Source: a bacterium
GTDB taxonomy: Bacteria; Patescibacteriota; Dojkabacteria; SC72
DNA: 64,000 bases
Reading direction: 5' to 3'
Assembly: GCA_021463465.1 (NCBI GenBank)
Contig: JAJTYH010000002.1
Span: 137,799 to 201,798 of the forward strand
The notes under the pieces were generated by a model. The model ran no database searches and was not told the origin of the DNA. It was given only the letters and a program-made list of their open reading frames with translations. Position 1 is the stretch's first letter, and the number at the start of each line of letters is the position of its first letter. The translations under genes and the position numbers were made by a program. This document shows, in pieces, positions 26,892 to 62,909 of this stretch.

Positions 26892-27007
26892 TAAAGTTGA
26901 CCTATATAAGTTTATTCTACACCTTGAGTTTAATACATTCCTTAAAAAATAGCAATATAGCAAGATATTTGATAAAATACCGTCAACATAAAACAAACTT
27001 TAGATAC

Positions 27008-42007: not shown

Positions 42008-42614
42008 TTTGTGCCTCCTTCTTGAACTCTTCAACATTAAGTTTACCTTCAAAATTAAATCTGGCTCCACCAATATCTTTCACTACAGTTTTGAGGTTTA
42101 CAGACTCAATGAAGCGATCATTGCCAAGCACATACCAGAGTTTAGAAACATCGGTTAGATTGTTAGCACTACCAGTAATATCAAAGCTTGAGCCTTCAGT
42201 AAGTTCGAAAGAATCAATTGATGCAAGACCACTTGAGAGTGACTGAAGGTATGTGATGATGTCCCTTGAAGAATATGTACTCGTTGCGATTTTGGTATAG
42301 AGATTAATTCTTCTTAAAATCTCATCATTTGAGGTCAAAAGATTTTCACGAAGTGATAAATCATTCTCGGCCTGAAAAAGTAAGTCTTTCTGTCGATTAA
42401 GATCAATCTTAGCAAAAATATTAAAACCAACAATCAAAAGCGAAAAAGAGATTAAAATAAAAAGGGAAACCGCTGCACCCACATTCAATTTAACTTTACT
42501 TGTCTCGACAACTATCTCTTCCTGAGTTAGTGGAGGAATAAGGTTAATACTTTTACTACCCCTAATCAGATTAGGTGCATTTACTTTCTTTGTTTCTACA
42601 TTGGTATTACTCAT
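42000..42614 (-). CDS. pilN: Type IV pilus assembly protein PilN-like
   Basis: Short cytoplasmic N-terminus, one TM (GAAVSLFILISFSLLIVGF), periplasmic coiled region. TGA stop; overlaps pilO start. Confidence 0.6.
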   Translation of the reverse strand: MSNTNVETKKVNAPNLIRGSKSINLIPPLTQEEIVVETSKVKLNVGAAVSLFILISFSLLIVGFNIFAKIDLNRQKDLLFQAENDLSLRENLLTSNDEILRRINLYTKIATSTYSSRDIITYLQSLSSGLASIDSFELTEGSSFDITGSANNLTDVSKLWYVLGNDRFIESVNLKTVVKDIGGARFNFEGKLNVEEFKKEAQNG

Positions 42615-43641
42615 CTTTAAGTGCGAGTCCTATTGCAACAGAATATGAAGCCGAGCTTTTGGTGACAATATTTTTAAATCTGTCAGGAATTTCAATACCT
42701 TTCCAAGGATCTGCTAGCATCGCATCAACACCCATGGTCTTAGAGATATAATCAGCAATACCAGGAAGTAGGGCACCATCACCATTAAGATAAATATTCT
42801 TGGGAGCTTGAGCCAATGTCTTATTCTTATAAAACTCAATTCCACGATTAACCTCTGTAATGATTGCATCAACAATAGGTTTGAGAGTTTGATATATCTT
42901 ACCTTCTAAAACTCCCTCAACAATACCATAATTTCGCTTGTATTCTTCAGCTTGTGTATATTCAAAGTTAAACTTATTAACAATTGCTTGCGTTAATGAA
43001 TCTGAGCCAATAGCAATACTTTGAGAAAACACAAGCTGTTCATCAAGAAGGATACTCATATCAGTGGTATTTGAACCAAAGTCTAACATTACCATATGCT
43101 TCATCTTTGTTGATCGGTACATTGCTCTACCAAGTGCAACTGATTCTGTTTCAACATTAATTGGTTCTAAACCAGCTTTCTCTACAACATTCAGGAAAAG
43201 ATCTACCATCTTCCTGGGAGCAGCAACAAGTAGAACTTTCGGAGCACTTTTCTCTTGGTTAAATCCTATGGTTACATAGCTCATTTGAACGTCATCAATC
43301 GGCATTGGGATGAATTCTTTTGCCTGATAATAGACAGCATTATCCAGTTCGTCATCCTTTACTCCAGGAAACTCTAAAAACCTTGTAAATACCAAAGATT
43401 CAGGCAAAGCTACAATTACCTTATTATTTCGTATTTTTGAATTTACAAACAGAGTCTTAAGTGCATCAGCTAGCTGTTTTTGGTGTACTTCATCTTCACT
43501 ATTGATAACTCCATGGGGTGTTTTTTGACTACCAAAATTTTCAAGAAATGGGGTAGGGGTCGAAATCCCTTTAAGTTCAACGGCTTTTACAGAGTGATTA
43601 CCAAAATCAATTCCAACATGGTCGGGCAGTTTTGACATCAT
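42607..43641 (-). CDS. pilM: Type IV pilus assembly ATPase-like protein PilM (actin/FtsA fold)
   Basis: HVGIDFGNHSVKAVEL N-terminal actin-like phosphate-1 motif; 344 aa. Confidence 0.8.
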   Translation of the reverse strand: MMSKLPDHVGIDFGNHSVKAVELKGISTPTPFLENFGSQKTPHGVINSEDEVHQKQLADALKTLFVNSKIRNNKVIVALPESLVFTRFLEFPGVKDDELDNAVYYQAKEFIPMPIDDVQMSYVTIGFNQEKSAPKVLLVAAPRKMVDLFLNVVEKAGLEPINVETESVALGRAMYRSTKMKHMVMLDFGSNTTDMSILLDEQLVFSQSIAIGSDSLTQAIVNKFNFEYTQAEEYKRNYGIVEGVLEGKIYQTLKPIVDAIITEVNRGIEFYKNKTLAQAPKNIYLNGDGALLPGIADYISKTMGVDAMLADPWKGIEIPDRFKNIVTKSSASYSVAIGLALKDE

Positions 43642-43727: not shown

Positions 43728-46211
43728 TTACAAAGGTTTAAAGCCCACTTCTCGTTTAAAGCCTTCTATTTCACCACCGAAGAACATAGGAGCAAAAGCA
43801 AGGTATCTGTTATCAAAATGAATAGCTAGAACCGGATAAGAAGCCGAAAACAATGGGGTTAAATCCCTACGGATTGAAATTGAGAGTCCATTACTTGTAC
43901 CAAAGCCAAGCATACTTCCATGCACCAGTAAGCCATCTCTTACAGACTGTCCAGTGTCAAGCTCAGGCATATCAATTTCACCGTCCGTGAGCAAGAAAGC
44001 TTCAATTATGTCGTATTTAGGATAGCTACTACCTTGTGATTGATAATCTCCTGACTGAATGTTGATATTTCCTTTTGAGATAAACATACACCCATCACTT
44101 TGATTAGGTGAGGTGATATTTGGTCTTAAATTGGTCACTCCAGAAGCAAAGAATACAGTGGGTGTGTTGCAAACAAAGTTTGAATTGATTGTGACATTGC
44201 CAGTAACCTTAACTACACAAGACTTACTTGTACTGCAAGTGCTAATATCAGAACTTTGACCAGTAAAGGATGTATTATCAGAAAAACTCACAACGTTATA
44301 ATCAGAGGGAGACTCAGAAACCTCTTTATCAACCCTTCTGAATAACTCGTCATACCAATAATTTGTACGATTATTTGCTTCAAAATGGTTTAGGCTTCTA
44401 ACAGTATTAACCTCTTGAGGGTGTAATAGGCTAGGTAAACTGCTTGATGCTGCAAGAAGTAATTCTGAGGTGACATCTGCTTCATTTTTACTAAAGCTAA
44501 ATGGTGAATTCCAATATGAATCGTTTGAAAATCCTGAGCTTCCATTTAATTCAACTATCTCAATTCCAGAGGTAGACCCAGCATTAACAAGTCCACCTTT
44601 TGTTGCAATCCAGGAAACTCCAAATGGAAATCCTGAAGTTGCTGAGCTCATATTGCATGCCGCATCAAATGCATAAGCTGTGAAATTAACGTTTCCTTGT
44701 TCGTTGCTGTTCATGTCAATTCTGTCACTCCTTGAGGTGGCACTTGTTGTCCACAGATGATACCCAGAGTACATGCTTGAACCTGTAGCTCCACTACCAA
44801 ATACATAATTGGTGACGCCCGAAGTTTCATCATCAATTTCATCAGCACTTGGGTTTGGTGTTTGTAAGTCTGCATCTCCAACGACTCTTGTGATTGTGGA
44901 ATTAGCATCATTAAATTGCCACGCAACATCAATCCTGGTTGCATCGACAATTGAGAAATTAATCCCACTGCTTACTGGATCAGCAATATCAAGGTTGACT
45001 GACTGGGTTGAAGATGGCCAAGCAATAGTTCCAGAGCCACTACCATATTTTGGTACCGCGCTGATAGCATAGGTTCCACTTGTTAATTTTTCGTAATTAG
45101 TTATGCCAGAATTTTCATGATACGGCTCTAAATCGAGTGTAAGTGTTGTATTACTACCACTTTCAGTTACGCTAACATTTTTAATAGCTGCAGATGCACT
45201 TCCACCAGCTCCCTTTATTTCTCCTCTTAGTCCATTGCCAACTGTACCAACCCTTACCCAAGTTTGTAATGAGCCTCCTGCAACTCCCGATGCGTATCTG
45301 CTTGGAGCATATATGTCGCTCCATACACTTCCTACTTTTTTGACAAGTAATCCAAATTCGGAGTTGCTTGCAAGTGCTTGCTGTTCAGAAGTGGAAAGTG
45401 ATTCAATTGTTGTTGGGTTAGCTCCAAACCAAACTCTTATATCCGATACAGAATCTGAACCAGATGTAGTTGCTACCTGAGCATTTACCCTTACAACATT
45501 ATTCGCACTTTTTCCAAGATATCCTGCACTTGGGGTACATCCGTTAAAAGTGCCGCCACCTCCACCAGCACCCGAGGATGAATTATACAGTGAGTATGAG
45601 ACTGTAACGGGTGGAATCACTGGAATACACGCAAATTGTTTCAAGATGTACTGGGTACAGGTTGGCTCTTCTTCTTCACAGTCTCGACACATTTTGCCTG
45701 GGTTAGATTTTGTAGGGCAATTATACCAGTCTCCACAAATTCTTGGCGGATTATTGTACTTACAGCATGGGCCTGCATCTTGTGCATTACCCCAAATACA
45801 ACCTCTGTATCCTTGGCAAGATTCTGAGACAACTGTGTTTAAATCGGGAATAGTGCCAGAAGGGCAGTTATATGTATTCCAAGGGCAAGTGGGTCCACCT
45901 CCGCCACCTCCGCCGCCTCCGCCGCCTCCACCAGAACCACCGCAAGTTGTACTGCACTCATAATCATGACACCAGCAAATATTTTCATCTTGACCAGTAT
46001 CCGGATTTCTTTGAAATCCACAAGAGTATACTGCTATTCCAGAAGATTGCCCACCACTTACGTTTGGTGTATTTGCACAGATTTCACGGGCATTAATACT
46101 ACAACCCCGTGATGGACCCGTCGTACAATAAGCCAATGTAATCGAAAAAGAAGAGAAAAAGAAAAAAGAAAATAGTAAGCCAACTTTAATAACTCTTTTA
46201 ATAATTTTCAT
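43728..46211 (-). CDS. Secreted Cys-rich protein with poly-Gly tract and large C-terminal beta-rich domain; candidate pilus-associated adhesin
   Basis: Signal peptide (MKIIKRVIKVGLLFSFFFFSSFSITLA). Many Cys in the first ~200 aa. A G17 tract and a second G7 tract. 827 aa. Immediately upstream of, and co-oriented with, pilMNO. Confidence 0.5.
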   Translation of the reverse strand: MKIIKRVIKVGLLFSFFFFSSFSITLAYCTTGPSRGCSINAREICANTPNVSGGQSSGIAVYSCGFQRNPDTGQDENICWCHDYECSTTCGGSGGGGGGGGGGGGGPTCPWNTYNCPSGTIPDLNTVVSESCQGYRGCIWGNAQDAGPCCKYNNPPRICGDWYNCPTKSNPGKMCRDCEEEEPTCTQYILKQFACIPVIPPVTVSYSLYNSSSGAGGGGGTFNGCTPSAGYLGKSANNVVRVNAQVATTSGSDSVSDIRVWFGANPTTIESLSTSEQQALASNSEFGLLVKKVGSVWSDIYAPSRYASGVAGGSLQTWVRVGTVGNGLRGEIKGAGGSASAAIKNVSVTESGSNTTLTLDLEPYHENSGITNYEKLTSGTYAISAVPKYGSGSGTIAWPSSTQSVNLDIADPVSSGINFSIVDATRIDVAWQFNDANSTITRVVGDADLQTPNPSADEIDDETSGVTNYVFGSGATGSSMYSGYHLWTTSATSRSDRIDMNSNEQGNVNFTAYAFDAACNMSSATSGFPFGVSWIATKGGLVNAGSTSGIEIVELNGSSGFSNDSYWNSPFSFSKNEADVTSELLLAASSSLPSLLHPQEVNTVRSLNHFEANNRTNYWYDELFRRVDKEVSESPSDYNVVSFSDNTSFTGQSSDISTCSTSKSCVVKVTGNVTINSNFVCNTPTVFFASGVTNLRPNITSPNQSDGCMFISKGNINIQSGDYQSQGSSYPKYDIIEAFLLTDGEIDMPELDTGQSVRDGLLVHGSMLGFGTSNGLSISIRRDLTPLFSASYPVLAIHFDNRYLAFAPMFFGGEIEGFKREVGFKPL
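45892..45943 (-). repeat. Imperfect (GGN)17 trinucleotide tract encoding poly-Gly
   Basis: ccacctccgccacctccgccgcctccgccgcctccaccagaaccaccgc on the + strand. Confidence 0.6.
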
Positions 46212-46669
46212 GTATTATAAAGGTTGATATTACAGAACCTATTCATAACTTCACAAGCATTATCTTTACACGCACCTGAGAGGAAAATCACATTCTTTGA
46301 AGAAATATAGTCAAAGAATTTATCAATCGTAACAGTTTCAGAACTAAATTCTTTATTTTTATCTACTCTATTTACGGAATAATCTCCTGTATCACAATTT
46401 ATCTTAACCTCCTCAAACATCTTGGACTTTATTTTGTTTGGCCAAACTCCTTCTAAATCAAGTGTATACTTTTCTTCATCAAAACTAACTACATAAAAGA
46501 CACCTGAATTTCTTCTTATATCAAAATCTTTATCCAATTCAACTGGTGGGCTATATGTGATACTTTCTCTCAAATCTTTGTTACGTGGATTTTTCACGAT
46601 TAAATAAAGGCACAAAAAAAGGGAACATACTAGCAAAAGCACAACACTAAAAAAGAACCCTTTACTCAT
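46208..46669 (-). CDS. Small secreted/anchored hypothetical protein
   Basis: N-terminal hydrophobic signal/anchor; 4-nt overlap with the downstream gene. Confidence 0.35.
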   Translation of the reverse strand: MSKGFFFSVVLLLVCSLFLCLYLIVKNPRNKDLRESITYSPPVELDKDFDIRRNSGVFYVVSFDEEKYTLDLEGVWPNKIKSKMFEEVKINCDTGDYSVNRVDKNKEFSSETVTIDKFFDYISSKNVIFLSGACKDNACEVMNRFCNINLYNT

Positions 46670-46860
46670 GTACTTATAAATATCAAATATCTTTACTTAA
46701 AATTAGGATATTTAAATTGCAATGTCAATTATTCCATTCGACGATATTAAAACCCCCTCCAAGTAAAAATCAAGCGGAGAATCTTAATCAAAGGAAGTAC
46801 AAGACAATTGACAATGTTTTATAACAACTAGTTAATTGTCGCTGGAAGTATTACTAATTA

Positions 46861-48114
46861 TCAATACCCAGAAAATGTTTGAAGTGCCTCATCGAAAATT
46901 TCGGGGGTTACTGCGATATGTATTGCAGTTGCTAACAATGACGGAGGGTAGTATATAACTAAAGTTGATCCATCAGGCATCCTTTTTATCGTGATCAAAA
47001 TTAATTTATCTTTGCCGGGCCAAGAAATTTGATAAGATTTAAATTTACTTACTTTTTCATGATCTAAATACAGCAAAGCAGAAATTTGCTCATCGCTTAG
47101 CTTTTTAAATTCAGCAAAAGTCCCATCAATACCTGTTACATCATCCATATACCTGAAAGCTTCTTCAGAAGTTAAAAAACTTTCAACGTATCGTACTTCT
47201 CCATTAATATAAGGAACGGGGCACTGTTCAACATAGGGGAATGAAATAGATTCACCGTTCAATCCAATGTATTCCCGCGTAGTTGGCGGGGCTTCAGTCG
47301 GTTTTATAGTAAGGGTAGGATTTGTTATAACAGTCGGTTCAAGTGAAGGAGTAGGGTTAACAACAGGGGGCTCATTACCACCATCTGACCCATCACCACC
47401 AAAACTTAGCGGTGTTGCTTGTGGAGCAACCCCAGGTTCCACAGGTAGTGATAACACTGCTGGATTTTTAGTACTTTGATAAATAAGCGTTGCCGCAGTA
47501 GCAAGAATTGCCACTCCCATAAAAAGTCCAAGTCCTGTACCTCTTTTTTTGGGGCTTTGTGAAGGAGATGAATTATCTTTACCTTCAGCTGGTCTTTTTG
47601 CTGGTGAACCAACAACAATAGGGGCAACACCGTCGCGAACTAATAACTGAGGCTTCCAGTTATCACCATCATTTTCCCACCTTCCGAAGGGGTCAAATAC
47701 AATATCTCCATTTTCTTGTTTCCTAAATCTACCAAATGCGGTAACCAGAATTTGACCAGGCTCAAGCGAAGTAATATTAAGGTCTGCATCTATTTGATCA
47801 AAGGAATCTCTAATTTGCTCACAAACTTCCTTACGAAGAAAACGCCTTTCATTTTTCCTAAGTGGCTTAATAAAAGGAAGGACCAATGCGTTAATACCGT
47901 TCTCACCACCGAAGAATTCATTTGATAGACTATTGCATCCAACGCCATTAAAATCTTCTTCATCTCCCGTAAATAAGTAAGCTTCAGGAAATAGATTTAA
48001 AGCCTCCTCCAGCTTTGCTTTTGCGCCATCAATCCTCTGGCTAGCTTCCAGAGCAGGGGAACTAGAGGAAAAAGGAGAGATTCTTTCAAAAGACCTTGTA
48101 CTTGCATTTACCAT
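46861..48114 (-). CDS. Hypothetical bitopic membrane protein (cytoplasmic N-domain, 1 TM, Pro/Thr-rich linker, extracellular C-domain)
   Basis: TM segment GLGLFMGVAILATAATLIY; PT-rich linker. Confidence 0.35.
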   Translation of the reverse strand: MVNASTRSFERISPFSSSSPALEASQRIDGAKAKLEEALNLFPEAYLFTGDEEDFNGVGCNSLSNEFFGGENGINALVLPFIKPLRKNERRFLRKEVCEQIRDSFDQIDADLNITSLEPGQILVTAFGRFRKQENGDIVFDPFGRWENDGDNWKPQLLVRDGVAPIVVGSPAKRPAEGKDNSSPSQSPKKRGTGLGLFMGVAILATAATLIYQSTKNPAVLSLPVEPGVAPQATPLSFGGDGSDGGNEPPVVNPTPSLEPTVITNPTLTIKPTEAPPTTREYIGLNGESISFPYVEQCPVPYINGEVRYVESFLTSEEAFRYMDDVTGIDGTFAEFKKLSDEQISALLYLDHEKVSKFKSYQISWPGKDKLILITIKRMPDGSTLVIYYPPSLLATAIHIAVTPEIFDEALQTFSGY

Positions 48115-48180: not shown

Positions 48181-48576
48181 CTACTTATCGCCTAAAACCT
48201 TCTTTACTTCATTTACTAAGTCCGTGTACTCCAACTCAGATTTAATCAAGTAGGATACCGCGCCAAAATCAAAAGCCTCTTTAATAACTTTATCACTCGT
48301 CATATTGGTCAAAATTATCACTGGAGCATCGCCATATCCCTCTTTATCAGCTTTAATCGTCCTCAACACCTCCAAACCATCAAGACCAGGCATCATCAAA
48401 TCAAGTAGAATCAACGAAATTACATCTGGACTTTTTTTCAAAACTTCGAGGCCCTTATATCCATCTATCGCACTCACCACATTATATCCAGCACTTTGAA
48501 CCACCTCGACATAAGAATCCAAAAGAGCTTTCTCGTCTTCAATAATTAATACTGTTTTTTTGTTTTCCATATACAT
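48181..48576 (-). CDS. Stand-alone CheY-like receiver domain protein (PilH/PilG-like)
   Basis: Intact receiver motifs: LIIEDE, LILLDLMMPGLDG (phospho-Asp), ILTNMTS, K in YLIKS. 131 aa with no output domain. Confidence 0.8.
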   Translation of the reverse strand: MYMENKKTVLIIEDEKALLDSYVEVVQSAGYNVVSAIDGYKGLEVLKKSPDVISLILLDLMMPGLDGLEVLRTIKADKEGYGDAPVIILTNMTSDKVIKEAFDFGAVSYLIKSELEYTDLVNEVKKVLGDK

Positions 48577-48581
48577 TCCTT

Positions 48582-49529
48582 TTACTGAGGTTGAAGCGTT
48601 CCAGTACCATTATACAGGACATAATCAAATATCGGCAAAGCCCATTCTTGTTGAGGGACTTGAACCTCTTTAGCACGATAAGAGCCAGTACAGTTAGCAC
48701 CAACAGTCATTTTAACCATCTCCCAATCTGTAATACAGTTAGCATTGGAAAGGGAAGCCCTTAGCGAAATTATTGAATTAACACTACGAACTCTAACTTC
48801 ATCCAAAGAATATCCGCCTGATGCTCCTAAAGGCACTGTAATTTGCGAGCCTGCCGCTACTGGAGTCCAGGAATCTGACAAACTAGGATTGCCACTACAA
48901 TCGCTTCCACCAGCGAAGATGCAGTACGGGAGGATATCGCCGTATGCATAAGGCTTGTACTCACCAGCAATACCCCCTGTGTAGTTTCTCCCGTAGACTC
49001 GACTTATCATTAAACCTCCAACGGCAGTACCGCGAGGCTCAACCGTAAGAAGTAAGGAGCACGAGCCAGGATTAGGAGTTTGACCTCGCAACACAAATGA
49101 CCTAACAGAATCAGGCCTTATCTCCAAATCATCCTGTTCTGACGCTAGCTTGGTTGTTAGTTCTAAGGTTGATGTTTCATCTTGGCAATTAGATAGAGAT
49201 GTAGAAGAGTCGGCACCTACACCCACATCAGATAAGAAACTTACAACATTCTCAACTCCTTGAATCTTACACCCATCAGCTTGATCAATACCCGTTCCAA
49301 ACTCAGGTTTTGCACAACTCGCTTTTAATGCACTAACAGAGGTCCCTTTTACTGAATCAATAATTGAATCGGCTGTTTCAAGAGCTTCCGCAGAAGATTT
49401 TTCATTTACAACTCTGAAATTATCTCTCAAAACACGTGATAACATTGCCATACCCATAACAATAGATATGACCAAAACAATCATAACAATAGCTAATGCC
49501 TGTGCTTTGTAGCCAACTGCGGTTTTCAT
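48582..49529 (-). CDS. Membrane-anchored hypothetical protein, possibly a non-canonical minor pilin/PilX-like component
   Basis: N-terminal hydrophobic helix but no G/A-x-x-x-x-E prepilin motif; position in the pilin operon. Confidence 0.35.
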   Translation of the reverse strand: MKTAVGYKAQALAIVMIVLVISIVMGMAMLSRVLRDNFRVVNEKSSAEALETADSIIDSVKGTSVSALKASCAKPEFGTGIDQADGCKIQGVENVVSFLSDVGVGADSSTSLSNCQDETSTLELTTKLASEQDDLEIRPDSVRSFVLRGQTPNPGSCSLLLTVEPRGTAVGGLMISRVYGRNYTGGIAGEYKPYAYGDILPYCIFAGGSDCSGNPSLSDSWTPVAAGSQITVPLGASGGYSLDEVRVRSVNSIISLRASLSNANCITDWEMVKMTVGANCTGSYRAKEVQVPQQEWALPIFDYVLYNGTGTLQPQ

Positions 49530-49551: not shown

Positions 49552-50226
49552 CTATTCCCAGGTCAATTTTTGCGTAGCGACCAAGGCTTGTTTGTAGTAC
49601 GCAGGTTGTACATTCTTAGAAAACGACATTTCATATTTTGATTTCATTTCAATAGCAATCGTAATCAAAACATTTCCACTTGGAGTTGAATAATGGTGCA
49701 TCTCAAATTGGTCTGCAAAAACCTCTGAATTATTAAGCACAACGGCGTTTTGCATATATTCAATGTTATCACTATCAAAGCAACTTGCCGGTGCAATATT
49801 ATCAGGATACGAAGACTTAAGGATATAACCCTTAGTCTGATCGCTTAGAGTAGGGAAGTATCCAATACAAACCCAACGATTGTACCCACTAGGTCTAAAA
49901 TGAATCTCAGATGAACTAAGCCCCTCTCCAACAGCTTGATCATAACCCTGAACTGTTCCTGAATTAATGATTTTACTCATACTTTCATCATATAACCTAC
50001 CACTAACATTGTAGAACCGTATATCATCTGTATGTGAGTTCCTTATGCTTCTCCTAACAAGCTCAATTACAAACTCACTCTCTTGGCGTGCAGTTGTTCT
50101 TGCCGAAGTTACTGCGGAAGTACGAATCAAAGTAGTAAGGGTAATTGAAGCCATTAGCACTACCGTTGTTATGATAACAATAGTAATGAGCATTTCCACC
50201 AGACTCAAACCCTCGTACTTTCTCAT
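49552..50226 (-). CDS. Type IV minor pilin (prepilin-type N-terminus)
   Basis: MRKYEG/LSLVEMLITIVII gives a class III signal with Gly-1 and Glu+5. Confidence 0.6.
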   Translation of the reverse strand: MRKYEGLSLVEMLITIVIITTVVLMASITLTTLIRTSAVTSARTTARQESEFVIELVRRSIRNSHTDDIRFYNVSGRLYDESMSKIINSGTVQGYDQAVGEGLSSSEIHFRPSGYNRWVCIGYFPTLSDQTKGYILKSSYPDNIAPASCFDSDNIEYMQNAVVLNNSEVFADQFEMHHYSTPSGNVLITIAIEMKSKYEMSFSKNVQPAYYKQALVATQKLTWE

Positions 50227-50771
50227 TTCTGTAATGTTTTAGTTAAAACATAATACTCGTAGTCGGATACCTCACAATCATCACTATTATCACAGCCTAT
50301 TTTTCCTACAACCATCTTGCCAACAACCAAACCAGTTGCAATATCTGATTCAGGTGTGATACAAAAAACATTAAAAACTGTAGGATCAGAAGAGCTTACT
50401 GCATTCTTACAAGAGTTCCTCTCGCCTGCATCATAATTACAAGCTGGTATAAACACACCACTTGTATTAACAAACTCTGGATTACCAGCGGTTCCAGAAA
50501 CCGCAAAACAGTTGTTAACGTTTGTTGTAATACTTGGAAATAACTTTTCTTCTGAGTTATTATTCTTTTCTGCAATAGTTTTTACAGCAGAACCCCCTTC
50601 AATCGCAATTTGAGTCATACTATCTCCAAGCTCATTAATTACTACCTGTTTTACTGTGTCGGCAGCCACCCCCATAAGCAGTACAGACGCCATTCCAGCT
50701 ACAACAATGGCTAGAAGTGCTTCTATAAATCCTAATCCTTCGTAAGTTTTAGTCAGCTGTTGATGTTTCAA
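50223..50771 (-). CDS. Type IV minor pilin (prepilin-type N-terminus)
   Basis: KTYEG/LGFIEALLAIVVAG with Gly-1 and Glu+5. Confidence 0.6.
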   Translation of the reverse strand: MKHQQLTKTYEGLGFIEALLAIVVAGMASVLLMGVAADTVKQVVINELGDSMTQIAIEGGSAVKTIAEKNNNSEEKLFPSITTNVNNCFAVSGTAGNPEFVNTSGVFIPACNYDAGERNSCKNAVSSSDPTVFNVFCITPESDIATGLVVGKMVVGKIGCDNSDDCEVSDYEYYVLTKTLQK

Positions 50772-51489
50772 TGTTAATTTTTCCCGAAATATTACTTATT
50801 GATATATCTTTTTCTCTTTTAGTTCTAGGACTTTCAATAGTCACCACAAAATCAATCGCATCACTCACTATCGAGCCGCTAGAATCGTAGTTTACTACAT
50901 TACCTGAAACGTCATAAAGGAATGCCCTCCCAGAAACAGCTTCAAATAGTATATAAACAGGAACACCAGCCAAATCTCCAGTTGCATTATTTGAAACAGG
51001 AATATTAATATTAAAATTACTCGCAATCACTCTTTCACCAAAATCTCCACCTTCTATGAGTTCGCTAACATTTGAACCAAGATTGCAATCAGCATTACCA
51101 TAGCTATTCACAGGTAAACTACCATTAAGTGGGCCGAGTGCGAAGTTACTGTCAAAGTTTGGCAGCTCACCTGTTGTCCTGACATCTCCATAACTATTAA
51201 ACTGAGAGCACCATTTAAAAATCTTATAAGTACCGTTACTTGCGAAGGAACTAAAATCTAAACCTACACCATATATCCAACGGTCACCTGCGTCTCTTTC
51301 TAAAAAAAGTGCTGCTCGCTGAGCGTAACGAACATCTTGCTCCAAACTCAACATCTTTTCATTTAAGGTTATACTATCCCTTAGTCCATAAAAAGCTGCA
51401 AAACCTATACCAGCAATTATAATAAAAATTGAAACTACAATGAGCATCTCAACCAGCGTGTATGCGTGATATTTATAAGTGGCAGTCAT
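50749..51489 (-). CDS. Pilin-like protein (Ala at -1, Glu+5)
   Basis: MTATYKYHA/YTLVEMLIVVSIFIIIAG. Start placed at the internal Met to avoid overlap with the upstream sulfotransferase. Confidence 0.5.
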   Translation of the reverse strand: MTATYKYHAYTLVEMLIVVSIFIIIAGIGFAAFYGLRDSITLNEKMLSLEQDVRYAQRAALFLERDAGDRWIYGVGLDFSSFASNGTYKIFKWCSQFNSYGDVRTTGELPNFDSNFALGPLNGSLPVNSYGNADCNLGSNVSELIEGGDFGERVIASNFNINIPVSNNATGDLAGVPVYILFEAVSGRAFLYDVSGNVVNYDSSGSIVSDAIDFVVTIESPRTKREKDISISNISGKINIETSTAD

Positions 51490-51514: not shown

Positions 51515-52309
51515 CTATTCTTCAAAGAAATGTTTCCACTTAGTTTTAGCAAATCTCTCCTTAAGCTGATTGTAATTAGAAATACCTTCTTTAAGCGAGC
51601 TATTGCGCTGTTTAAATGTATTAGGGACCAAAGGCTGAACGGAGACCCTCAGAAACTGAAGAACCTTCTTAATCTCGTTTTCACCTTTTAACTCTAAGTT
51701 TTCATAAACAAGCTCATAGATCTTATGCCCCGCAAAAAACTTTCTAAACTCATTTTCATATCTTTCAGTCTTTTCAAACTCATTAATGCATTCCTGATAG
51801 GGCAGGGTAAGTGGAGATAGTTGCTCTGTCTTACCTTTTTGTTCTGCCCACCTTTCTGTTTGACCCGCTTTAAATCTAGAGAGTACAGTGTTAAGCATGT
51901 TACGACGGGTAATGTGCAGTATATGAATGCTTTTATCTTTTTTAAGTTCCTTCCATAGTTCTTTATTTGAAGAGCTTTGCGCATGGTAGTAAAAGAGTTT
52001 GAAGCCAACGGCTTTAACATTTCGACGATATTTGCGAAATAGGTGACTTCGCATATATTTTACTGTGTCTTTTCCCACAGGCTTTCTTTTATCCCACGTC
52101 CTATATCTCTCACCGTAACATAGGATTTGGTTGTGGGAGTTAAGCAAACCTCTTAGGAAATTAGAACCTGTACGAGAACGACCTAATACAATAAATTTGA
52201 TATATTTATCCTGACCCTTTTTCAACTTCAAATCAATTAGTATGTTGCTCAGTACTACTGGCATCCACTTCTTCAGATCAGATGAAATACTACGAATACT
52301 TATAGCCAC
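51515..52309 (-). CDS. PAPS-dependent sulfotransferase-family protein (Stf0-like) embedded in the pilin operon
   Basis: 5'-PSB-like P-loop LGRSRTGSNFL and 3'-PB-like TRRNMLNTVLS (RxxRNxxD/NxxxS). 264 aa, cytoplasmic. Confidence 0.55.
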   Translation of the reverse strand: MAISIRSISSDLKKWMPVVLSNILIDLKLKKGQDKYIKFIVLGRSRTGSNFLRGLLNSHNQILCYGERYRTWDKRKPVGKDTVKYMRSHLFRKYRRNVKAVGFKLFYYHAQSSSNKELWKELKKDKSIHILHITRRNMLNTVLSRFKAGQTERWAEQKGKTEQLSPLTLPYQECINEFEKTERYENEFRKFFAGHKIYELVYENLELKGENEIKKVLQFLRVSVQPLVPNTFKQRNSSLKEGISNYNQLKERFAKTKWKHFFEE

Positions 52310-52321
52310 AATAAAGCTGTG

Positions 52322-53053
52322 TTAATTTAGAAAAAGTAGTGAATTCAAATTGATAAAGCGTGCAAGCAAGAATGCTAAAAGCATGAATGGAAGTAGGGGG
52401 ATGTAAGACTTGAGTGTCCCACGATTGATTGAAACAAGAACTAATGAAAATATGGCAGCGATATATAATGTTAAAAGGAGGAAAGTTAAGTAATTGATAG
52501 GATTAAATATTAAAGCGAAAAAGAGCAATAGAAGTAAATCTCCAAATCCAAAAGATTTTTTAAAATGATTTAGAATTGTTATCCCAGTTGCTACAAGGAT
52601 AAAGTACCCAATACTCAGCCATGCAATGGCATTGTAATTAAGAATAAAAAAAATCACACCAAGAACTAACAAGATGTGTGTTAGATTCGCTGATATCCTT
52701 TGCGTTTTTAAATCAGATATAGACAAACAGTATAGAATTGTCAGGAAAACGTAGTGCCAAAGGCTTAACCCGTAGGATAGAAAGATTAACAAAAATGCTA
52801 TACCTAAAAACAGTTCAGATAAAGGGTGTATGAAATCAATAGATTTCTTGCATTTTGAACATCTGCCTTTTAACACGACCCACGAAATTATCGGAATTAG
52901 TTCATACCACTCTAACTCATGTTTACAATGCTCACAGTGTGAACGTGATATTAATTTGTTTTTCCAATTACCCTTCTTTCCAAATCTGTATACAGAAGCA
53001 TTAAGAAAACTGGCAAAAACTGTACCTAATAAAAATATATAAATATATATCAT
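52322..53053 (-). CDS. pilD: Prepilin peptidase (A24 family, PilD)
   Basis: ASFLNASVYRF, RSHCEHCKHEL...IPIISWVVLKGRCSKCKKSI zinc-ribbon-like cytoplasmic domain, multiple TM helices. Confidence 0.85.
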   Translation of the reverse strand: MIYIYIFLLGTVFASFLNASVYRFGKKGNWKNKLISRSHCEHCKHELEWYELIPIISWVVLKGRCSKCKKSIDFIHPLSELFLGIAFLLIFLSYGLSLWHYVFLTILYCLSISDLKTQRISANLTHILLVLGVIFFILNYNAIAWLSIGYFILVATGITILNHFKKSFGFGDLLLLLFFALIFNPINYLTFLLLTLYIAAIFSLVLVSINRGTLKSYIPLLPFMLLAFLLARFINLNSLLFLN

Positions 53054-53113
53054 GTGAGTATTGTACTAAAAAAAGGGGGCATATACTGCCCCCTTAATGT
53101 TCTTAAACTAATA

Positions 53114-53665
53114 CTATTGCCAGTTCTTCGCTGCTGCAACCCAATCGGTAGCTAAGAATGAACCCGCACCTCCACCTGCATTGCTAATTACCAACGTATT
53201 GAAGGTAGTATCGTCCATCTCCTTTAGTGATACTTTTGTTGAACCGTTAACTGGTAAGATTCCAAACCCGTTACCGACGCAATATCCTCCTAATTGCTGT
53301 GAGTCATCCAATCCTCCGAAGGTCACACAAATCAAAACGCTTTGGCCATTACCATCAGTTGCGTAGTAAAAAGTAGCGTCACTTCCACCGTCAAACGATT
53401 TGCTATCCAAATATTCCTCTAACGCTCCTCCTGTACCAAGTGCCGCAGACCAGCTACCAAATGTAGCCTCATCTGGGAACTCCCTGTTATCAGCATAATA
53501 TGCCTGCAATCCTTGATAAAGCTGATCTGCAGCATTTTGATGCTGAACACGATTAGCCCTCTGAATTGCAAATCTCCCTGCAGCTATACCCATCGTCATT
53601 AAAATGATAAGAATACCCATGACCACAAGCATTTCAACGAGCGTAAATCCTTTATATGTTTTCAT
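53114..53665 (-). CDS. pilA: Type IV major pilin PilA-like
   Basis: MKTYKG/FTLVEMLVVMGILIIL canonical class III signal. Start placed at the internal Met of the listed ORF. Confidence 0.8.
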   Translation of the reverse strand: MKTYKGFTLVEMLVVMGILIILMTMGIAAGRFAIQRANRVQHQNAADQLYQGLQAYYADNREFPDEATFGSWSAALGTGGALEEYLDSKSFDGGSDATFYYATDGNGQSVLICVTFGGLDDSQQLGGYCVGNGFGILPVNGSTKVSLKEMDDTTFNTLVISNAGGGAGSFLATDWVAAAKNWQ

Positions 53666-53731: not shown

Positions 53732-54943
53732 CTATCCTACAACACCAGATAAATTGAACATCGGCATATACACTGCTAAAGCGATAAAAGCAATTACACT
53801 TCCCATAATCACCAACATTAACGGCTCCATTAATGTTGTGAGGTTACTAGTTGTAACTTCAACCTCTTCGTTGTAATACTGTGCAACTTTTTCAAGCACC
53901 TTATCAAGCTCACCTGACTCCTCACCAACAGCAATCATCTGACTAACAATCATAGGGAATACATTTGCACGAGCAATTGGTAATGCTAAAGGTACACCTT
54001 TTTCAACTTCTTTTTTAGCTTCTCCAACTGCATCTTTAAAGATTGAATTTGTAAGTGACCCAGCTGTAAGTTCAAGAGCCTTAACAATTGATAGACCGCT
54101 TCGGAGCAAAAGTGATAGCACTCGAGTAAATTGAGCAATCTGCATCTTAACTATAACTGGACCAAAAATCGGAGCTTTAAGAGCAATTCTATGTAGTAAT
54201 ACTTTGCCTGTTGGAGATTCCATATATGATTTAGCTACTATCCCAATGACTGATGCAAATATAATGATAAGCCACCAGAATTTTAGGAAGAAGTCACTCA
54301 TCGCAATCATAACTCGTGTAATAAGTGGGAGCTCAGCCCCAAATTCGCTATAAATATCTGCCATCGCCGGAATCAAAACAAACATCATAAGTAGGACAAC
54401 GCCTATGATAACTACCATGATTACAGCCGGATATATCATGGCTCCCCTTATCTTATCCTTCAATTTTTTCTGAGCTTCAAGTTCAATAGCCAATCGCTCC
54501 AAGATATTTTCCAGATTACCGCTCTGTTCTCCAGCTTCCAACAAATTCATAGTAATGTCATCAAAGACCTGCTTATTACGTCTGAAAGCTTCTGCAAGGC
54601 TCTTTCCACCCTGTACATCACCCAATACATTGGAAAGTGTGCGCTTAAAAAGTGGATTGGTTGCCTGGGCCTCAAGAATCTGAAGGGCTTGAGTAAGAGC
54701 CAAACCTGCACCAATCATAGTAGCAAGTTGTCTCATGAAAACAACCTTATCTTTGATAGGTACACCTCCAAGGTTAATCTCGTTTAGCTTCTCTAATGAA
54801 AAACCCAGTTCTTCTTCAATCCTTACTACAACCAATCCTTTATTCTGAAGACTCTCCGCGACAGCCTGAGCTGTACGAGCTTCCATCGACCCATTAACCT
54901 CTTTACCAGTTTTATCACGGGCAAAATATTTGTATGCTTGCAT
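53732..54943 (-). CDS. pilC: Type IV pilus inner-membrane platform protein PilC (GspF family)
   Basis: Two GspF repeats, 3 TM helices, 403 aa. Confidence 0.85.
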   Translation of the reverse strand: MQAYKYFARDKTGKEVNGSMEARTAQAVAESLQNKGLVVVRIEEELGFSLEKLNEINLGGVPIKDKVVFMRQLATMIGAGLALTQALQILEAQATNPLFKRTLSNVLGDVQGGKSLAEAFRRNKQVFDDITMNLLEAGEQSGNLENILERLAIELEAQKKLKDKIRGAMIYPAVIMVVIIGVVLLMMFVLIPAMADIYSEFGAELPLITRVMIAMSDFFLKFWWLIIIFASVIGIVAKSYMESPTGKVLLHRIALKAPIFGPVIVKMQIAQFTRVLSLLLRSGLSIVKALELTAGSLTNSIFKDAVGEAKKEVEKGVPLALPIARANVFPMIVSQMIAVGEESGELDKVLEKVAQYYNEEVEVTTSNLTTLMEPLMLVIMGSVIAFIALAVYMPMFNLSGVVG

Positions 54944-54946
54944 ACA

Positions 54947-56977
54947 TTAAACCTTGAGTAATCTTACAATCTCTTCTGGATGGACTGCGAACTCTTGAGC
55001 TCTTTCCATCGTAATCAAACCTTCCCGTACCAGCTTGACCAAAGACTGCTCCAAAGAGACCATTCCTATATCTAGACTTGTTCTAATTACATTATCAATC
55101 TGATGAGTTTTACCTTCACGAATCAAATTTCGCACCGCGGGTACTCCCAACATAATTTCTGAAACCGCACGTCGACCGCCACCATCGATAGGAATCAGTC
55201 TCTGAGCAATGACTGCTTCAAGAATGTTAGCGAGCTGAGTTCGAATCTGTGCCTGCTGATTTTCTGGGAATACATCAATGATACGATCAACGGTCTGAGC
55301 TGCACTGTTAGTGTGCAAGGTTGCAAAAACCAAGTGACCTGTTTCAGCCAGAGTAATAGTAGAAGCAATAGTTTCATAGTCACGCATCTCACCGACCAAA
55401 ATGACATCTGGATCCTGTCTAAGAGCACTCTTTAATGCCACTGTCCAGGAGTGAGTATCATCATGCATCTCTCGTTGATCAATCACAGCTTTGGCTGGTT
55501 TGAAGACATACTCAATAGGGTCTTCAATCGTAATCATGTGAGTAGAGCGGGTTAAATTGATGGCTTGAAGCATGGCTGCTAAGGTCGTACTCTTACCGTG
55601 TCCAGTTGGACCGGTTACCAATACCAAACCCTGTCCTAATTTAATAATCTGATTATAAAGGGCAGGTAATTGTAATTCCTCAATCGTTCGAATTTTGGAA
55701 GGAATCAATCGAAACGCGGCAGTTAAATTACCCTTAGAATAGTAAGCATTTATTCTGAATCTAGCTTCAGCATTTTGAAGAGGGGAATAGGCAAGATCAA
55801 CCTCACGGTTAACTTCAAGTAATTCTTTCTTCTGTTCACTAAGCACTGGCATGATAAGCTCTTCAGCATTTACAGGTGAGACCACATTATCATTCACTGC
55901 AATTAAACTACCATCGATCCTAATCATCACAGGATACCCCACTGACACCTGAATGTCTGAAGCATTACGCTCAATCGCTATATCCATGATTTTATTGATA
56001 CTAAGAGGGTACTTAGCGTTTGAAGATGCGCTCTCAACAACTTGAGGATTGACCTGTGTATGATCATTTTCATCTACTGCAGAATTTTCAGAAGAAGCGG
56101 GCAGTGCAGGAGCTGTTACTTCTGAAACTGAAGAATCCACTAAAGGTACTTCAGTAGAAGCTGTATCACCATCAGGTTTTGCAACGACCTCAGGATACAT
56201 CTGCTCTAATGTAGGCACTTTCTTACTAGTATCATCAGTAGAAGAGCTCAACGGATCAACAACCGGTGGGGTAGTATTAAAATCAGGCAAGGCATTGTCC
56301 ACATCACTCACAGGAGCAGTTTGAGCTTCAGGCACAGCTGGCAAAACATCACTCGCAGGAGCAATCATATCGAGACTTTCAGCAGGCACATCAGGAAGTG
56401 GAGAAGCAGTAGCACTAAGCTTTGTCATATCCTCAACTGCCTTTTCAGCATCATCCTTAACTTCTGCTTCTGGAGCGGATGGAGCCTCATGCGCGACTTC
56501 TTCTGGTTTATCTTCACCCTTATCTTGTATCAATTCATCTTTAAGCTTAGCTAATTTTTTAGCTAAAGCCTGAAGTGGGCTCTCATGTCCCTCTTCTACA
56601 GGAGGAGTTACTAACGGATTGGTCTCATGACTAGGAAGTGGATCTTCCACAGTCGCAGAGAGTGCAGAATCAGAAGCTACAGGAGCAGGTACCGTGCTAG
56701 AAATTTGATCTTGTGGGGTCTCAATTACAGCAGGATCAGGCATAACAGGAGGTGGTCCATCTATTCCATTACCTCTACTAACAGATGCTACATCTTCAGG
56801 CTTACTCTCATCAGTAGTGGAAGGGGAAGTTGACGTGAGAACAGAAGCAGGATCCACAGGTGTACCAGTTGGCAAAGGCATACTACCCACAGTCGTAGTT
56901 GTAGCGGGAGCACTTGAATCAGACGCTGGATAGGCAAAATCCCCTAAAGAATTGGATGGTTGGGCAGTCATATTCAA
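54947..56977 (-). CDS. pilT: PilT-type retraction ATPase with ~335-aa acidic Pro/Ser/Thr-rich disordered N-terminal extension
   Basis: C-terminal 340 aa is canonical PilT: GLVLVTGPTGHGKSTT Walker A, Asp box, His box, HTNSAAQTVDRIIDVFP. N-terminal 335 aa is low-complexity (P/S/T/D/E/A) with local GC elevation. Confidence 0.8.
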   Translation of the reverse strand: MNMTAQPSNSLGDFAYPASDSSAPATTTTVGSMPLPTGTPVDPASVLTSTSPSTTDESKPEDVASVSRGNGIDGPPPVMPDPAVIETPQDQISSTVPAPVASDSALSATVEDPLPSHETNPLVTPPVEEGHESPLQALAKKLAKLKDELIQDKGEDKPEEVAHEAPSAPEAEVKDDAEKAVEDMTKLSATASPLPDVPAESLDMIAPASDVLPAVPEAQTAPVSDVDNALPDFNTTPPVVDPLSSSTDDTSKKVPTLEQMYPEVVAKPDGDTASTEVPLVDSSVSEVTAPALPASSENSAVDENDHTQVNPQVVESASSNAKYPLSINKIMDIAIERNASDIQVSVGYPVMIRIDGSLIAVNDNVVSPVNAEELIMPVLSEQKKELLEVNREVDLAYSPLQNAEARFRINAYYSKGNLTAAFRLIPSKIRTIEELQLPALYNQIIKLGQGLVLVTGPTGHGKSTTLAAMLQAINLTRSTHMITIEDPIEYVFKPAKAVIDQREMHDDTHSWTVALKSALRQDPDVILVGEMRDYETIASTITLAETGHLVFATLHTNSAAQTVDRIIDVFPENQQAQIRTQLANILEAVIAQRLIPIDGGGRRAVSEIMLGVPAVRNLIREGKTHQIDNVIRTSLDIGMVSLEQSLVKLVREGLITMERAQEFAVHPEEIVRLLKV

Positions 56978-57544: not shown

Positions 57545-59362
57545 CTACTCCTTAGACACACGAAGCACTTCCTCAATAGTCGTTATCCCCTCCAAAGCCT
57601 TTAGATACCCATCCTGAATCATTGTTACCATTCCAGCCTCAACAGCAGTCTTTTGGACTTCATCACTTACAACATTTTCCATCATCATTCTCCCAACTTT
57701 TTCAGTGATATTTAAAACTTCAAAAATGCCAACTCGCCCTTTATAACCGCTATCTCCACACCTCTGACAACCTTTTCCACGATAAAGATAAACAACATCT
57801 TCTCCAGTAGCACCTTTTTCAGGAGCCTTCAAAGGCATCTTATCTTCTTCAGACCGGCTTGAATTCGCAATACTAAGTCGTTTTGAATAATCAACCACGT
57901 CAAAGCTTTTAATACTACCTAACGTCTCCTTAACATCCTTAATCAGTTCAGGAGACATTGGAAATGCCTCTATGCAATGCTTACAAACCCTTCTTGGTAA
58001 TCTTTGCGCTACTACACACCGTAAAGTGGAAGAGAGTAGGTACGGTTCAACACCCATATCAAGCAAACGCGGAACAGCCGCAGCCGCACTATTAGTGTGC
58101 AATGTTGAAAGCACTAAGTGACCAGTAAGCGATGCCTGTATTGCCAGCTGGGCAGTCTCTTGGTCACGAATCTCACCAACCATTACGACATTGGGATCTT
58201 GTCTTAAAATGGCTCTCAGACCCTTTGCAAATGTCAACCCAACATCAGCTCTTACCTGTACCTGATTAACGCCTGGAATACGAATTTCAACAGGGTCTTC
58301 CAATGTTACAATGTTTACTTTAGGAGTGTTAAGTTTCATTATTGTAGCGGCTAGTGTTCTAGTTTTACCCGAACCAGTCGGCCCAGTTACTAATACAATT
58401 CCGTTAGTAGATTTAACCGAATCTAGAAAAGTTTGAAATGCGGTGCCCCTCATACCGCTATCTTCTAGCCTAATTCCTGAAATATCCGTTTCAAGGAGTC
58501 GCATAACAATTTTTTCACCATAAATTCCTGGGATTGTCGAAACACGGACGTCAACCTTACGATCTGCAATTTTAATTTGCATTCTACCATCAAGTGGAAT
58601 ACGTTTTTCGTCAATTTTTAGCCTTGCTAGAATTTTAACACGAGAAATAACCGCACTAATCATACTTTTTGGCAATGACAGTTTCTCCATGAGCACACCG
58701 TAGATTCTAAACCTGATGCGAAGCTTTGTTTCGGTTGGTTCAATATGGATATCAGAAGCATTTGAAGTCATCGCAAATCGAAAAATAGCATTCACAATTC
58801 TGGCGACAGGCGCATTCCTTAAGTCAATCTTTGACAGCTCCTCATCACCAACATAAGCATCGCCAACAGCATCAAGGTCTGTAACTGGTGCCTCATAATC
58901 CTCAAGAGCAGCAGAAACCTCAGTTCCTAAGTTTTCACCAACCCTTCTATCAAGTATAAAGTTTATTCCTTCTTGTGTAGTTATATGAATATTAAATTTC
59001 TCATTTGCAGCATACTTAATTTCAAGCGCTTGAATGGCCTGAACGTCAAATGGATCTAACATTGCAATATCAACAACTCCATCAGAGTGCCGGAACGGTA
59101 CAGCAGAGAACTGTTTCATTATGTCAATGTTAATTTCTGTAAGTACCGATTCAGGTATTTCAACTGCTTTTAAATCTACATAGGGGATATTGAAAAGTTC
59201 AGACTTTGCTTTAACTATAGTATCTTCGTCAATTAAATTCTTTTCGCGAAGAATCTGTTCTTCTGAACTTGAAGTTTTTGTACGCTCAACATGAATATCA
59301 TTCACTTGCTCTTGAGTGAGCAATCCTTTTGATTGTAGGAACTCAACTAACGACTTATTCAA
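57545..59362 (-). CDS. pilB: Type IV pilus assembly ATPase PilB (GspE family)
   Basis: N-terminal GSPII_E_N domain, Walker A GPTGSGKTRTLAAT, tetracysteine Zn motif CKHC...CQRCGDSGYKGR. Confidence 0.85.
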   Translation of the reverse strand: MNKSLVEFLQSKGLLTQEQVNDIHVERTKTSSSEEQILREKNLIDEDTIVKAKSELFNIPYVDLKAVEIPESVLTEINIDIMKQFSAVPFRHSDGVVDIAMLDPFDVQAIQALEIKYAANEKFNIHITTQEGINFILDRRVGENLGTEVSAALEDYEAPVTDLDAVGDAYVGDEELSKIDLRNAPVARIVNAIFRFAMTSNASDIHIEPTETKLRIRFRIYGVLMEKLSLPKSMISAVISRVKILARLKIDEKRIPLDGRMQIKIADRKVDVRVSTIPGIYGEKIVMRLLETDISGIRLEDSGMRGTAFQTFLDSVKSTNGIVLVTGPTGSGKTRTLAATIMKLNTPKVNIVTLEDPVEIRIPGVNQVQVRADVGLTFAKGLRAILRQDPNVVMVGEIRDQETAQLAIQASLTGHLVLSTLHTNSAAAAVPRLLDMGVEPYLLSSTLRCVVAQRLPRRVCKHCIEAFPMSPELIKDVKETLGSIKSFDVVDYSKRLSIANSSRSEEDKMPLKAPEKGATGEDVVYLYRGKGCQRCGDSGYKGRVGIFEVLNITEKVGRMMMENVVSDEVQKTAVEAGMVTMIQDGYLKALEGITTIEEVLRVSKE

Positions 59363-60995: not shown

Positions 60996-62909
<1,914 letters not shown>

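Follow-up and report, generated by a model that had tools for sequence, protein, structure and literature searches.

Why would the type IV pilus operon of a bacterium with a reduced genome encode a sulfotransferase? The question is raised by a 64,000-nucleotide stretch of Dojkabacteria DNA (contig JAJTYH010000002.1 of assembly GCA_021463465.1, positions 137,799 to 201,798; hereafter, the window), in which a gene on the reverse strand lies between the gene for the prepilin peptidase (pilD) and the genes for the minor pilins. An initial annotation of the window proposed that this gene encodes a sulfotransferase that uses 3′-phosphoadenosine 5′-phosphosulfate (PAPS) and that it might sulfate a pilin or a pilin glycan. 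We are highly confident that the product is a soluble, NodH-like sulfotransferase of the PAPS type. Our best reading, which is tentative, is that it sulfates, in the cytoplasm, a glycan that is bound for the pilus or for the cell surface. This type of enzyme is well known, but the pilus-operon setting is new, and it is confined to one small clade of ultra-small, Dojkabacteria-like bacteria of the Candidate Phyla Radiation (CPR).

Family, motifs and fold of the sulfotransferase

The protein matches Sulfotransfer_3 (PF13469) from Pfam with 40.1 bits, versus a cut-off of 27 (E = 6.3e-10), and the match covers positions 3-215 of the profile’s 216. A search of 5.8 billion proteins found 334 homologues, many of which are named “LPS sulfotransferase NodH” by the Joint Genome Institute (LPS is lipopolysaccharide). 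We scored conservation on a 120-sequence alignment of homologues, which was also used to build a profile of the family and an AlphaFold2 model. In this alignment, 20 columns are invariant, and the window’s protein keeps all of them. They include R46, G48 and S49 in the 5′-phosphosulfate-binding (PSB) loop; E67; G102, F103, K104, F106, Y107 and H109, within a block that reads GFKxFYYH (residues 102-109); H132, R135 and S144 in or near the 3′-phosphate-binding (3′-PB) motif; and several aromatic residues. N137 is conserved in at least 90% of the sequences. The two motifs that the initial annotation relied on are both present: the PSB loop is GRSRTGSN (residues 43-50), and the 3′-PB motif is RRNMLNTVLS (residues 135-144), which fits the pattern RRNxxNxxxS. 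Judging from the family score, the homologues and the invariant residues, a chance match to these motifs is excluded.

When we compared the family profile to proteins of known structure (PDB), the best match was 9vki, “LPS sulfotransferase NodH” (E = 8.7e-14), across 219 profile positions or nearly the full length. The remaining matches were all sulfotransferases except for one, which was the weakest (E = 0.068). The sequence of the window’s protein, by itself, matches 9vki with E = 6e-4 and at low identity. GRSRTGSN aligns with the LARSGSS loop of 9vki, and the 3′-PB motif aligns with its RENKLASYSS.

The AlphaFold2 model (predicted local distance difference test 88.7; predicted template-modeling score 0.87) is a single alpha/beta domain with the sulfotransferase fold. 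The structure prediction and the comparison to Stf0 and to cytosolic sulfotransferases had been suggested as a check, and they recovered the fold of PAPS sulfotransferases: in a Foldseek search of PDB, the top 50 matches (50/50) were all PAPS sulfotransferases, with probabilities of 0.99-1.00 and template-modeling (TM) scores of 0.35-0.55. These matches include the tyrosylprotein sulfotransferases TPST1/2, heparan sulfate 3-O-sulfotransferases (3-OSTs), Stf0 (1tex), cytosolic sulfotransferases, and the bacterial sulfotransferase 3rnl. So, family, motifs and fold all agree with the initial identification of the protein, and given the motifs and the fold, the sulfuryl donor is almost certainly PAPS. 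Signal peptides and transmembrane segments are both absent; the N-terminus has one helix, at residues 5-26. E67, which is invariant, is 21 residues past R46 of the PSB loop, and we take the catalytic glutamate of TPST2 and 3-OST to be at a similar spacing. Its conservation and position make E67 a candidate for the catalytic base. H109 is likewise invariant.

We considered three more specific assignments and rejected each of them. The protein is not an orthologue of Stf0, because it scores below both curated cut-offs (18.9 bits versus 400 for NF047724, and 20.1 bits versus 22 for PF09037, where the match is to the C-terminal half). It is not NodH proper, as there are no nod genes, chitin-synthase-type genes, or acyltransferase genes in the window or its flanks (10 kb on each side), and the organism is a CPR bacterium. 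And it does not belong with TPST or RaxST, since the profile matches to TPST have E = 0.0025-0.02, versus 8.7e-14 for the NodH-like protein, and none of the candidate tyrosines of the pilins co-varies with it.

Position in the pilus operon and origin of the gene

On the reverse strand, the genes are ordered PilB-like, PilT-like, PilC, major pilin, PilD, sulfotransferase, and four pilin-like genes; the block then continues with a receiver-only response regulator, three proteins without an assigned function, PilM, and a weak PilO-like open reading frame (ORF). There are 12 nucleotides (nt) between the stop codon of pilD and the start of the sulfotransferase gene, and 25 nt between its stop codon and the called ATG (51489) of minor pilin 1, so the spacers of 13-26 nt in the initial annotation were essentially right. 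These spacers leave no space for independent signals, so we infer that the sulfotransferase is co-expressed with pilD and the minor pilins. Given this layout, the genes are most probably co-transcribed. Between the major pilin gene and pilD, there is a hairpin followed by a run of T (53073-53095), which is the classical layout for high expression of the pilin with attenuated read-through; judging from its sequence, the hairpin probably attenuates transcription into the unit of pilD, the sulfotransferase and the minor pilins. A scan for promoter consensus sites was uninformative, as the sites were no more frequent than in shuffled sequence.

The location between pilD and the minor pilins, which the initial annotation pointed out, is kept in four lineages: the same gene order recurs in L007/L008/L014/L093, in L009, and in L012/L013. 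The three nearest groups of homologues (P0002, P0003 and P0004) are 46-48% identical to the window’s protein, and each of them is flanked by pilD on one side and by the same minor pilins on the other. In the pilus-linked lineages, identity is 80-86% for PilB and PilC, 69-74% for the major pilin, 53-64% for the minor pilins, and 38-57% for PilD. At 46-48%, the sulfotransferase has thus kept pace in its divergence with the faster-evolving members of the operon.

These comparisons bear on the idea that horizontal transfer left behind a gene that is now decaying or inactive, for example in a reduced genome that cannot make PAPS. CPR genomes are metabolically reduced. We searched for genes for PAPS synthesis and for glycosylation in the window and its flanks (about 84 kb), and there were no PAPS-synthesis genes in the operon, the window or the flanks. 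Also, NCBI’s product name for the identical protein is “hypothetical protein.” However, these 84 kb cover little of the genome; each of the 14 contigs that encode the identical protein has an intact ORF, as do the four diverged lineages; all four pilus-linked sequences keep all 20 of the family’s invariant residues; and the G+C content of the gene, overall and at third codon positions, is that of the rest of the operon, which means that its composition is fully ameliorated. We consider an inactive remnant to be very improbable.

Is the sulfotransferase a core part of the pilus machinery? A scan of metagenomes with the downstream minor pilin identified 13 related operons (L092-L104). In L093, the sulfotransferase occupies the slot that separates pilD from minor pilin 1; L092 and L094 have no gene there (gaps of 48 nt and about 128 nt, respectively); and in L095-L097, L099, and L101-L104, the slot contains a second paralogue of the major pilin. 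The sulfotransferase is absent from L092, L094, and L095-L104, even though these operons keep pilD and the same minor pilins. So we rejected the possibility that it is a core component of type IV pili, and its absence from sister operons implies that it is an accessory gene.

To see how the gene arrived, we built trees by simple neighbour-joining, without support values. In the tree of minor pilins 1-3, the operons with the sulfotransferase group together as a single clade; L092 branches just outside it, and L094 outside both. In the tree of the sulfotransferase, the pilus-linked proteins are monophyletic, and their sister is P0005, from a metagenome-assembled genome (MAG) of Dojkabacteria. 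The simplest history, as read from these trees, is a single insertion into the slot in the common ancestor of a small clade of Dojkabacteria-like CPR bacteria, followed by retention.

In full-text searches of the literature, we found no mention of sulfotransferases in type IV pilus loci or in CPR bacteria, nor of the sulfation of pilins, so the earlier remark that such an enzyme is not a described component of the pilus still holds. A study of pili in Saccharibacteria describes a similar locus that lacks a sulfotransferase gene (PMC11623550).

Candidate targets of the enzyme

To identify the usual role of the family, we examined its genomic contexts in one genome per GTDB species, which gave 78 loci with a relative. 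Pilus genes (PilB, PilC, PilD or a pilin) were within 6 kb at just one of the 78 loci (L014). According to Pfam, the most frequent types among the 143 genes that flank the other 77 loci are GT1 or GT4 glycosyltransferase (GT) domains (21 members), GT2 domains (17), and further sulfotransferases (10), as well as Wzy_C proteins and sugar-nucleotide enzymes. For example, L010, from Anaerolineaceae, is a typical Wzy/Wzz polysaccharide cluster. Because of these neighbourhoods, we think that the family ordinarily modifies glycans. By analogy, this agrees with the clusters for sulfated exopolysaccharides in cyanobacteria: in the pathway for synechan, repeat units on the cytoplasmic side are the substrates of the sulfotransferases from Wzx/Wzy clusters (PMC8205485).

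Given this precedent, the favoured acceptor is a sugar hydroxyl on a glycan at the cytoplasmic face, and because the gene has a fixed position in the pilus operon, a product on or around the pilus is favoured as well. Together, these make cytoplasmic sulfation of a glycan for the pilus or the cell surface our leading explanation. In the mechanism we propose, the enzyme would be functional and soluble, either in the cytoplasm or peripheral to the membrane. Its PSB loop (R44-N50) and the pair of R135 and S144 would bind PAPS, and Glu67 would take a proton from a sugar hydroxyl. The sulfuryl group would be transferred to a carbohydrate acceptor on the cytoplasmic side, which might be a lipid-linked or a nucleotide-linked glycan. 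The sulfated glycan would then reach the pilins or the cell surface around the pilus, where the sulfate would add a fixed negative charge to a structure that episymbionts are thought to use for contact with their hosts.

Several observations weigh against this explanation. First, as mentioned above, PAPS-synthesis genes were not seen nearby, and a literature search on PAPS synthesis in Patescibacteria turned up nothing relevant. Second, besides a GT2 protein about 12 kb beyond pilB, no glycosyltransferase or O-oligosaccharyltransferase (of the Wzy_C type) is encoded in the operon, the window or the flanks. In particular, no ORF of at least 120 amino acids (aa) in the window has a Wzy_C or glycosyltransferase domain, so there is no candidate of the TfpO/PglL type. 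Third, among the pilin sequence features that we tested, none tracks the presence of the sulfotransferase across the compared operons. Fourth, a cytoplasmic enzyme does not have direct reach to the globular domain of an exported pilin. Fifth, the gene for the sister protein P0005 is preceded not by pilD but by a divergent gene for a class II aminoacyl-tRNA synthetase (prolyl-type by Pfam), and the contig ends just after it. Sixth, the contents of the slot vary among related operons, so it could be a site where insertions are selectively neutral. Finally, glycosylation of pilins in CPR bacteria is an untested prediction and has never been demonstrated (PMC11623550).

Overall, the genomic context, from which our statements on function beyond the enzyme’s family are drawn, points both for and against a pilin or a pilin glycan as the target. 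The position of the gene is suggestive of sulfate on the pilus or on the cell surface near it. It is possible, though rather doubtful, that type IV pili in this clade undergo sulfation as a previously undescribed modification, with a horizontally acquired carbohydrate sulfotransferase that was recruited into the unit of pilD and the minor pilins and acts on pilins or on a glycan that is linked to them; the known modifications of pilins are glycans and phospho-forms. If so, sulfate might tune the charge of the pilus, and through it how an episymbiont recognizes its host, attaches to it, or resists phages that are specific to the pilus. Among the organelles by which cultivated CPR episymbionts could contact their hosts, only type IV pili have experimental support (PMC11623550). 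The presence of a sulfotransferase in the unit of pilD and minor pilins also raises the question of where PAPS comes from in a minimal genome.

Another possibility, which we also regard with some doubt, is that the target is a general envelope polysaccharide or glycolipid that is unrelated to the pilus. The gene would have hitch-hiked into a permissive slot that supplies transcription. The pilD-minor pilin junction is a hot spot, where relatives have either no gene or different genes; elsewhere, members of the family are housed in polysaccharide clusters; P0005 is not beside pilD; and as discussed above, no pilin feature correlates with the sulfotransferase. Furthermore, the nearest glycosyltransferase is a cellulose-synthase-like GT2 protein (518 aa), encoded beside a GH26-like gene (L105 15341-18047, about 12-16 kb beyond pilB and outside the window). 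A processive GT2 synthase together with a GH26-like gene suggests that a beta-linked exopolysaccharide is produced by the organism, and this polymer is another candidate for the acceptor. On the other hand, the gene kept its position while identity fell to 46-48% for its protein and to 54-62% for the minor pilins, and such short spacers imply that its expression is obligately tied to that of pilD and the minor pilins. Neither of these is decisive. If a general envelope polysaccharide is the target, then this would be a modest case of horizontal gene gain in a reduced genome.

The enzyme might instead sulfate a pilin directly, on tyrosine, serine or threonine, which would be a new post-translational modification of pilins. 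The candidate sites would be the tyrosine at position +1 of minor pilin 1, at an N-terminus close to the cytoplasm, which would be exposed at the active site of PilD, or a tyrosine in an acidic motif, which would be sulfated before export. Tyrosylprotein sulfotransferases are the top Foldseek matches (E = 5e-6 to 5e-5); the cleavage site of minor pilin 1, whose gene is the next one downstream, is an invariant Ala|Tyr that leaves tyrosine at the N-terminus; and the major pilin has a conserved LEEYLDS motif. Also, the pilus-linked clade lacks a loop of 13-17 residues, immediately after the putative catalytic glutamate, that is present in the polysaccharide-linked homologues, and this would fit a changed acceptor. 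But the sequence groups the protein with NodH-like carbohydrate enzymes (E = 8.7e-14, versus just 0.0025-0.02 for TPST); Foldseek separates TPST from carbohydrate sulfotransferases by only about one order of magnitude in E-value, and the TM scores are higher for 3-OST; and the globular domains of the pilins are outside the cytoplasm. We consider direct sulfation of a pilin to be unlikely.

Neither of the tyrosines proved to be specific to operons with the sulfotransferase. The tyrosine at +1 of minor pilin 1 is also found in L092 and L094, which lack the sulfotransferase, and the tyrosine in LEEYLDS, a possible TPST-like site because of its acidic context, is also found in L094, L099, L102 and other operons that lack it. 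Regardless of its role, the cleavage site of minor pilin 1 is distinctive, with alanine at −1 and an invariant tyrosine at +1 (L007, L009, L012-L014, L092 and L094) versus the usual Gly|Phe. In more distant relatives, the site is A|F or G|F.

Neighbouring genes, source, and comparison with known systems

The components of the pilus gene block are listed in Table 1.

Table 1. The sulfotransferase gene and the surrounding pilus genes (coordinates in the window).
Feature	Coordinates	Strand	Remarks
PilB-like assembly ATPase	57545..59362	-	MshEN + T2SSE
PilT-like ATPase	54947..56977	-	T2SSE is residues 326-596, behind a low-complexity N-terminal extension of ~320 aa
PilC platform protein	53732..54943	-	T2SSF
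Major pilin	53114..53665	-	183 aa as called; MKTYKG|FTLVEML; Pfam N_methyl
Terminator-like hairpin	53073..53095	-	9 G+C-rich pairs, AAGGGGGCAGTATATGCCCCCTT + TTTTT; consensus match; between major pilin gene and pilD
PilD prepilin peptidase	52322..53053	-	A24_N_bact + Peptidase_A24
NodH-like PAPS-dependent sulfotransferase	51515..52309	-	264 aa; GTG start, TAG stop; Sulfotransfer_3, motifs, fold
Minor pilin 1	50749..51489	-	246 aa; prepilin-type N-terminus A|YTLxEML
Minor pilin 2	50223..50771	-	182 aa; G|FIEAL; same-position orthologues have a pilin-type N-terminus
Minor pilin 3	49552..50226	-	224 aa; G|LSLVEML; Pfam N_methyl
Pilin-like protein 4	48582..49529	-	315 aa; hydrophobic N-terminal helix without a canonical cleavage motif; kept in all related operons
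Receiver-only response regulator	48181..48576	-	At the end of the pilin block; shared by all related operons (46-77% identity)
PilM	42607..43641	-	Distal end of the pilus gene block
Weak PilO-like ORF	41159-42073		

The conserved response regulator hints at control of the pilus by a phospho-relay. The N-terminal extension of the PilT-like protein, which is rich in proline, serine, threonine, aspartate and glutamate, is unusual for a retraction ATPase. It is retained, though diverged, in L007 and L014 (the proteins are about 62% identical overall), while NCBI’s product is only 346 aa. Between the response regulator and pilM, three genes without a match in Pfam (43728-48114, reverse strand) encode a 417-aa protein with a single membrane pass and a proline-rich linker, a 153-aa protein, and a secreted 827-aa protein with a cysteine-rich N-terminus and a run of 14 glycines. 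In the distant operons L098 and L099, the regulator is directly followed by pilM, so these three genes make up a second variable block. They may encode adhesins. We rejected them as genes that were gained along with the sulfotransferase, as the block is variable and the data is too sparse to link the two.

Elsewhere in the window, the first ORF (22-4506, forward strand) encodes the C-terminal portion of a surface protein of 2542 aa (L106 2352-9980). This protein has several LamG/ConA-like domains and a Rha78A-type Ig domain, and it may be an adhesin that binds hosts or glycans. A sortase gene (26897-27712, forward strand) overlaps the start of a convergent ORF with bacterial Ig domains (25977-26996, reverse strand), and one of the two starts was probably mis-set by the program that called the ORFs.

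As for the source of the DNA, the identical protein is MCC7290055.1 (from GCA_020853275.1), and the 14 contigs that encode it are from several samples. The window’s housekeeping genes are typical of a reduced CPR genome, and its PheS is closest, at 59-67% identity, to proteins that carry the names Candidatus Dojkabacteria or candidate division WS6. Among species-level relatives that have this operon, L014 (CAZIIC010000001.1) is the nearest, and its PheS is 78% identical to the window’s. The L014 MAG was submitted as Candidatus Saccharibacteria, yet its PheS groups with Dojkabacteria/WS6, so this label may be wrong.

The gyrB gene in the window has an in-frame TGA at the conserved glycine codon of EGGTH, which might suggest genetic code 25. 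However, the five public copies that cover this codon (L001-L005) read GGA. The genetic code is standard, and the TGA is a substitution that is private to the window. More broadly, there are five places (46105, 54446, 56942, ~60645 and 61836) at which the window is unlike all of the public copies (L001-L006) that span the site in question. Three of these are A to C changes, including one in pilC and one in the pilT-like gene; a 1-nt deletion cuts the gene for the delta′ subunit of DNA polymerase III to an ORF of 143 aa, versus 234 aa elsewhere; and the G to T change in EGGTH splits gyrB into 60996-61838 and 61905-62909. These five differences look like assembly or sequencing errors or else private variants of the source record.

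How does the sulfotransferase compare to characterized enzymes? Stf0, which is the trehalose 2-sulfotransferase of Mycobacterium, resembles it in the weak match to the C-terminal half and in the appearance of 1tex among the Foldseek matches. The human enzymes TPST1/2 are the top structural matches, with the same broad fold and the same scheme for binding PAPS, and RaxST is a bacterial tyrosylprotein sulfotransferase. However, the profile similarity of the window’s protein to the TPSTs is just marginal (E = 0.0025-0.02, with no significant stretch), and no candidate tyrosine correlates with its presence.

Enzymes of the NodH type (COG4424, 9vki, PF13469) are the best relatives by sequence that have a solved structure. 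They share the PSB loop, a glutamate about 21 residues later, the GFK block, and the 3′-PB motif RxN...S. In contrast, the window’s gene is in a pilus operon, without nod genes or a pathway for lipo-chitooligosaccharides.

The sulfotransferases of Wzx/Wzy clusters are similar as well, with homologues at 37-45% identity among GT2, GT4, Wzy and Wzz genes in Anaerolineae and cyanobacteria. The chemistry of these enzymes, examples of which are XssA and XssE for synechan in Synechocystis, is probably the same: O-sulfation of sugars, with PAPS, at the cytoplasmic face (PMC8205485). The Wzx/Wzy-cluster relatives differ in that they have the 13-17-residue loop that the pilus-linked clade is missing, and the window’s gene does not have a glycosyltransferase or a polymerase as a neighbour.

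Finally, the pilin loci of other bacteria also contain accessory genes that are specific to strains or clades, such as tfpO/tfpW in Pseudomonas aeruginosa and pglL and pptA/pptB in Neisseria, which decorate pilins and alter surface charge, phage sensitivity, or adhesion. The products of these genes are polytopic membrane proteins that transfer glycans or phospho-forms on the periplasmic side, and to our knowledge, none of them is a sulfotransferase or is similar to the soluble P-loop fold. What they have in common with the sulfotransferase is a similar pattern of presence and absence in a fixed slot.

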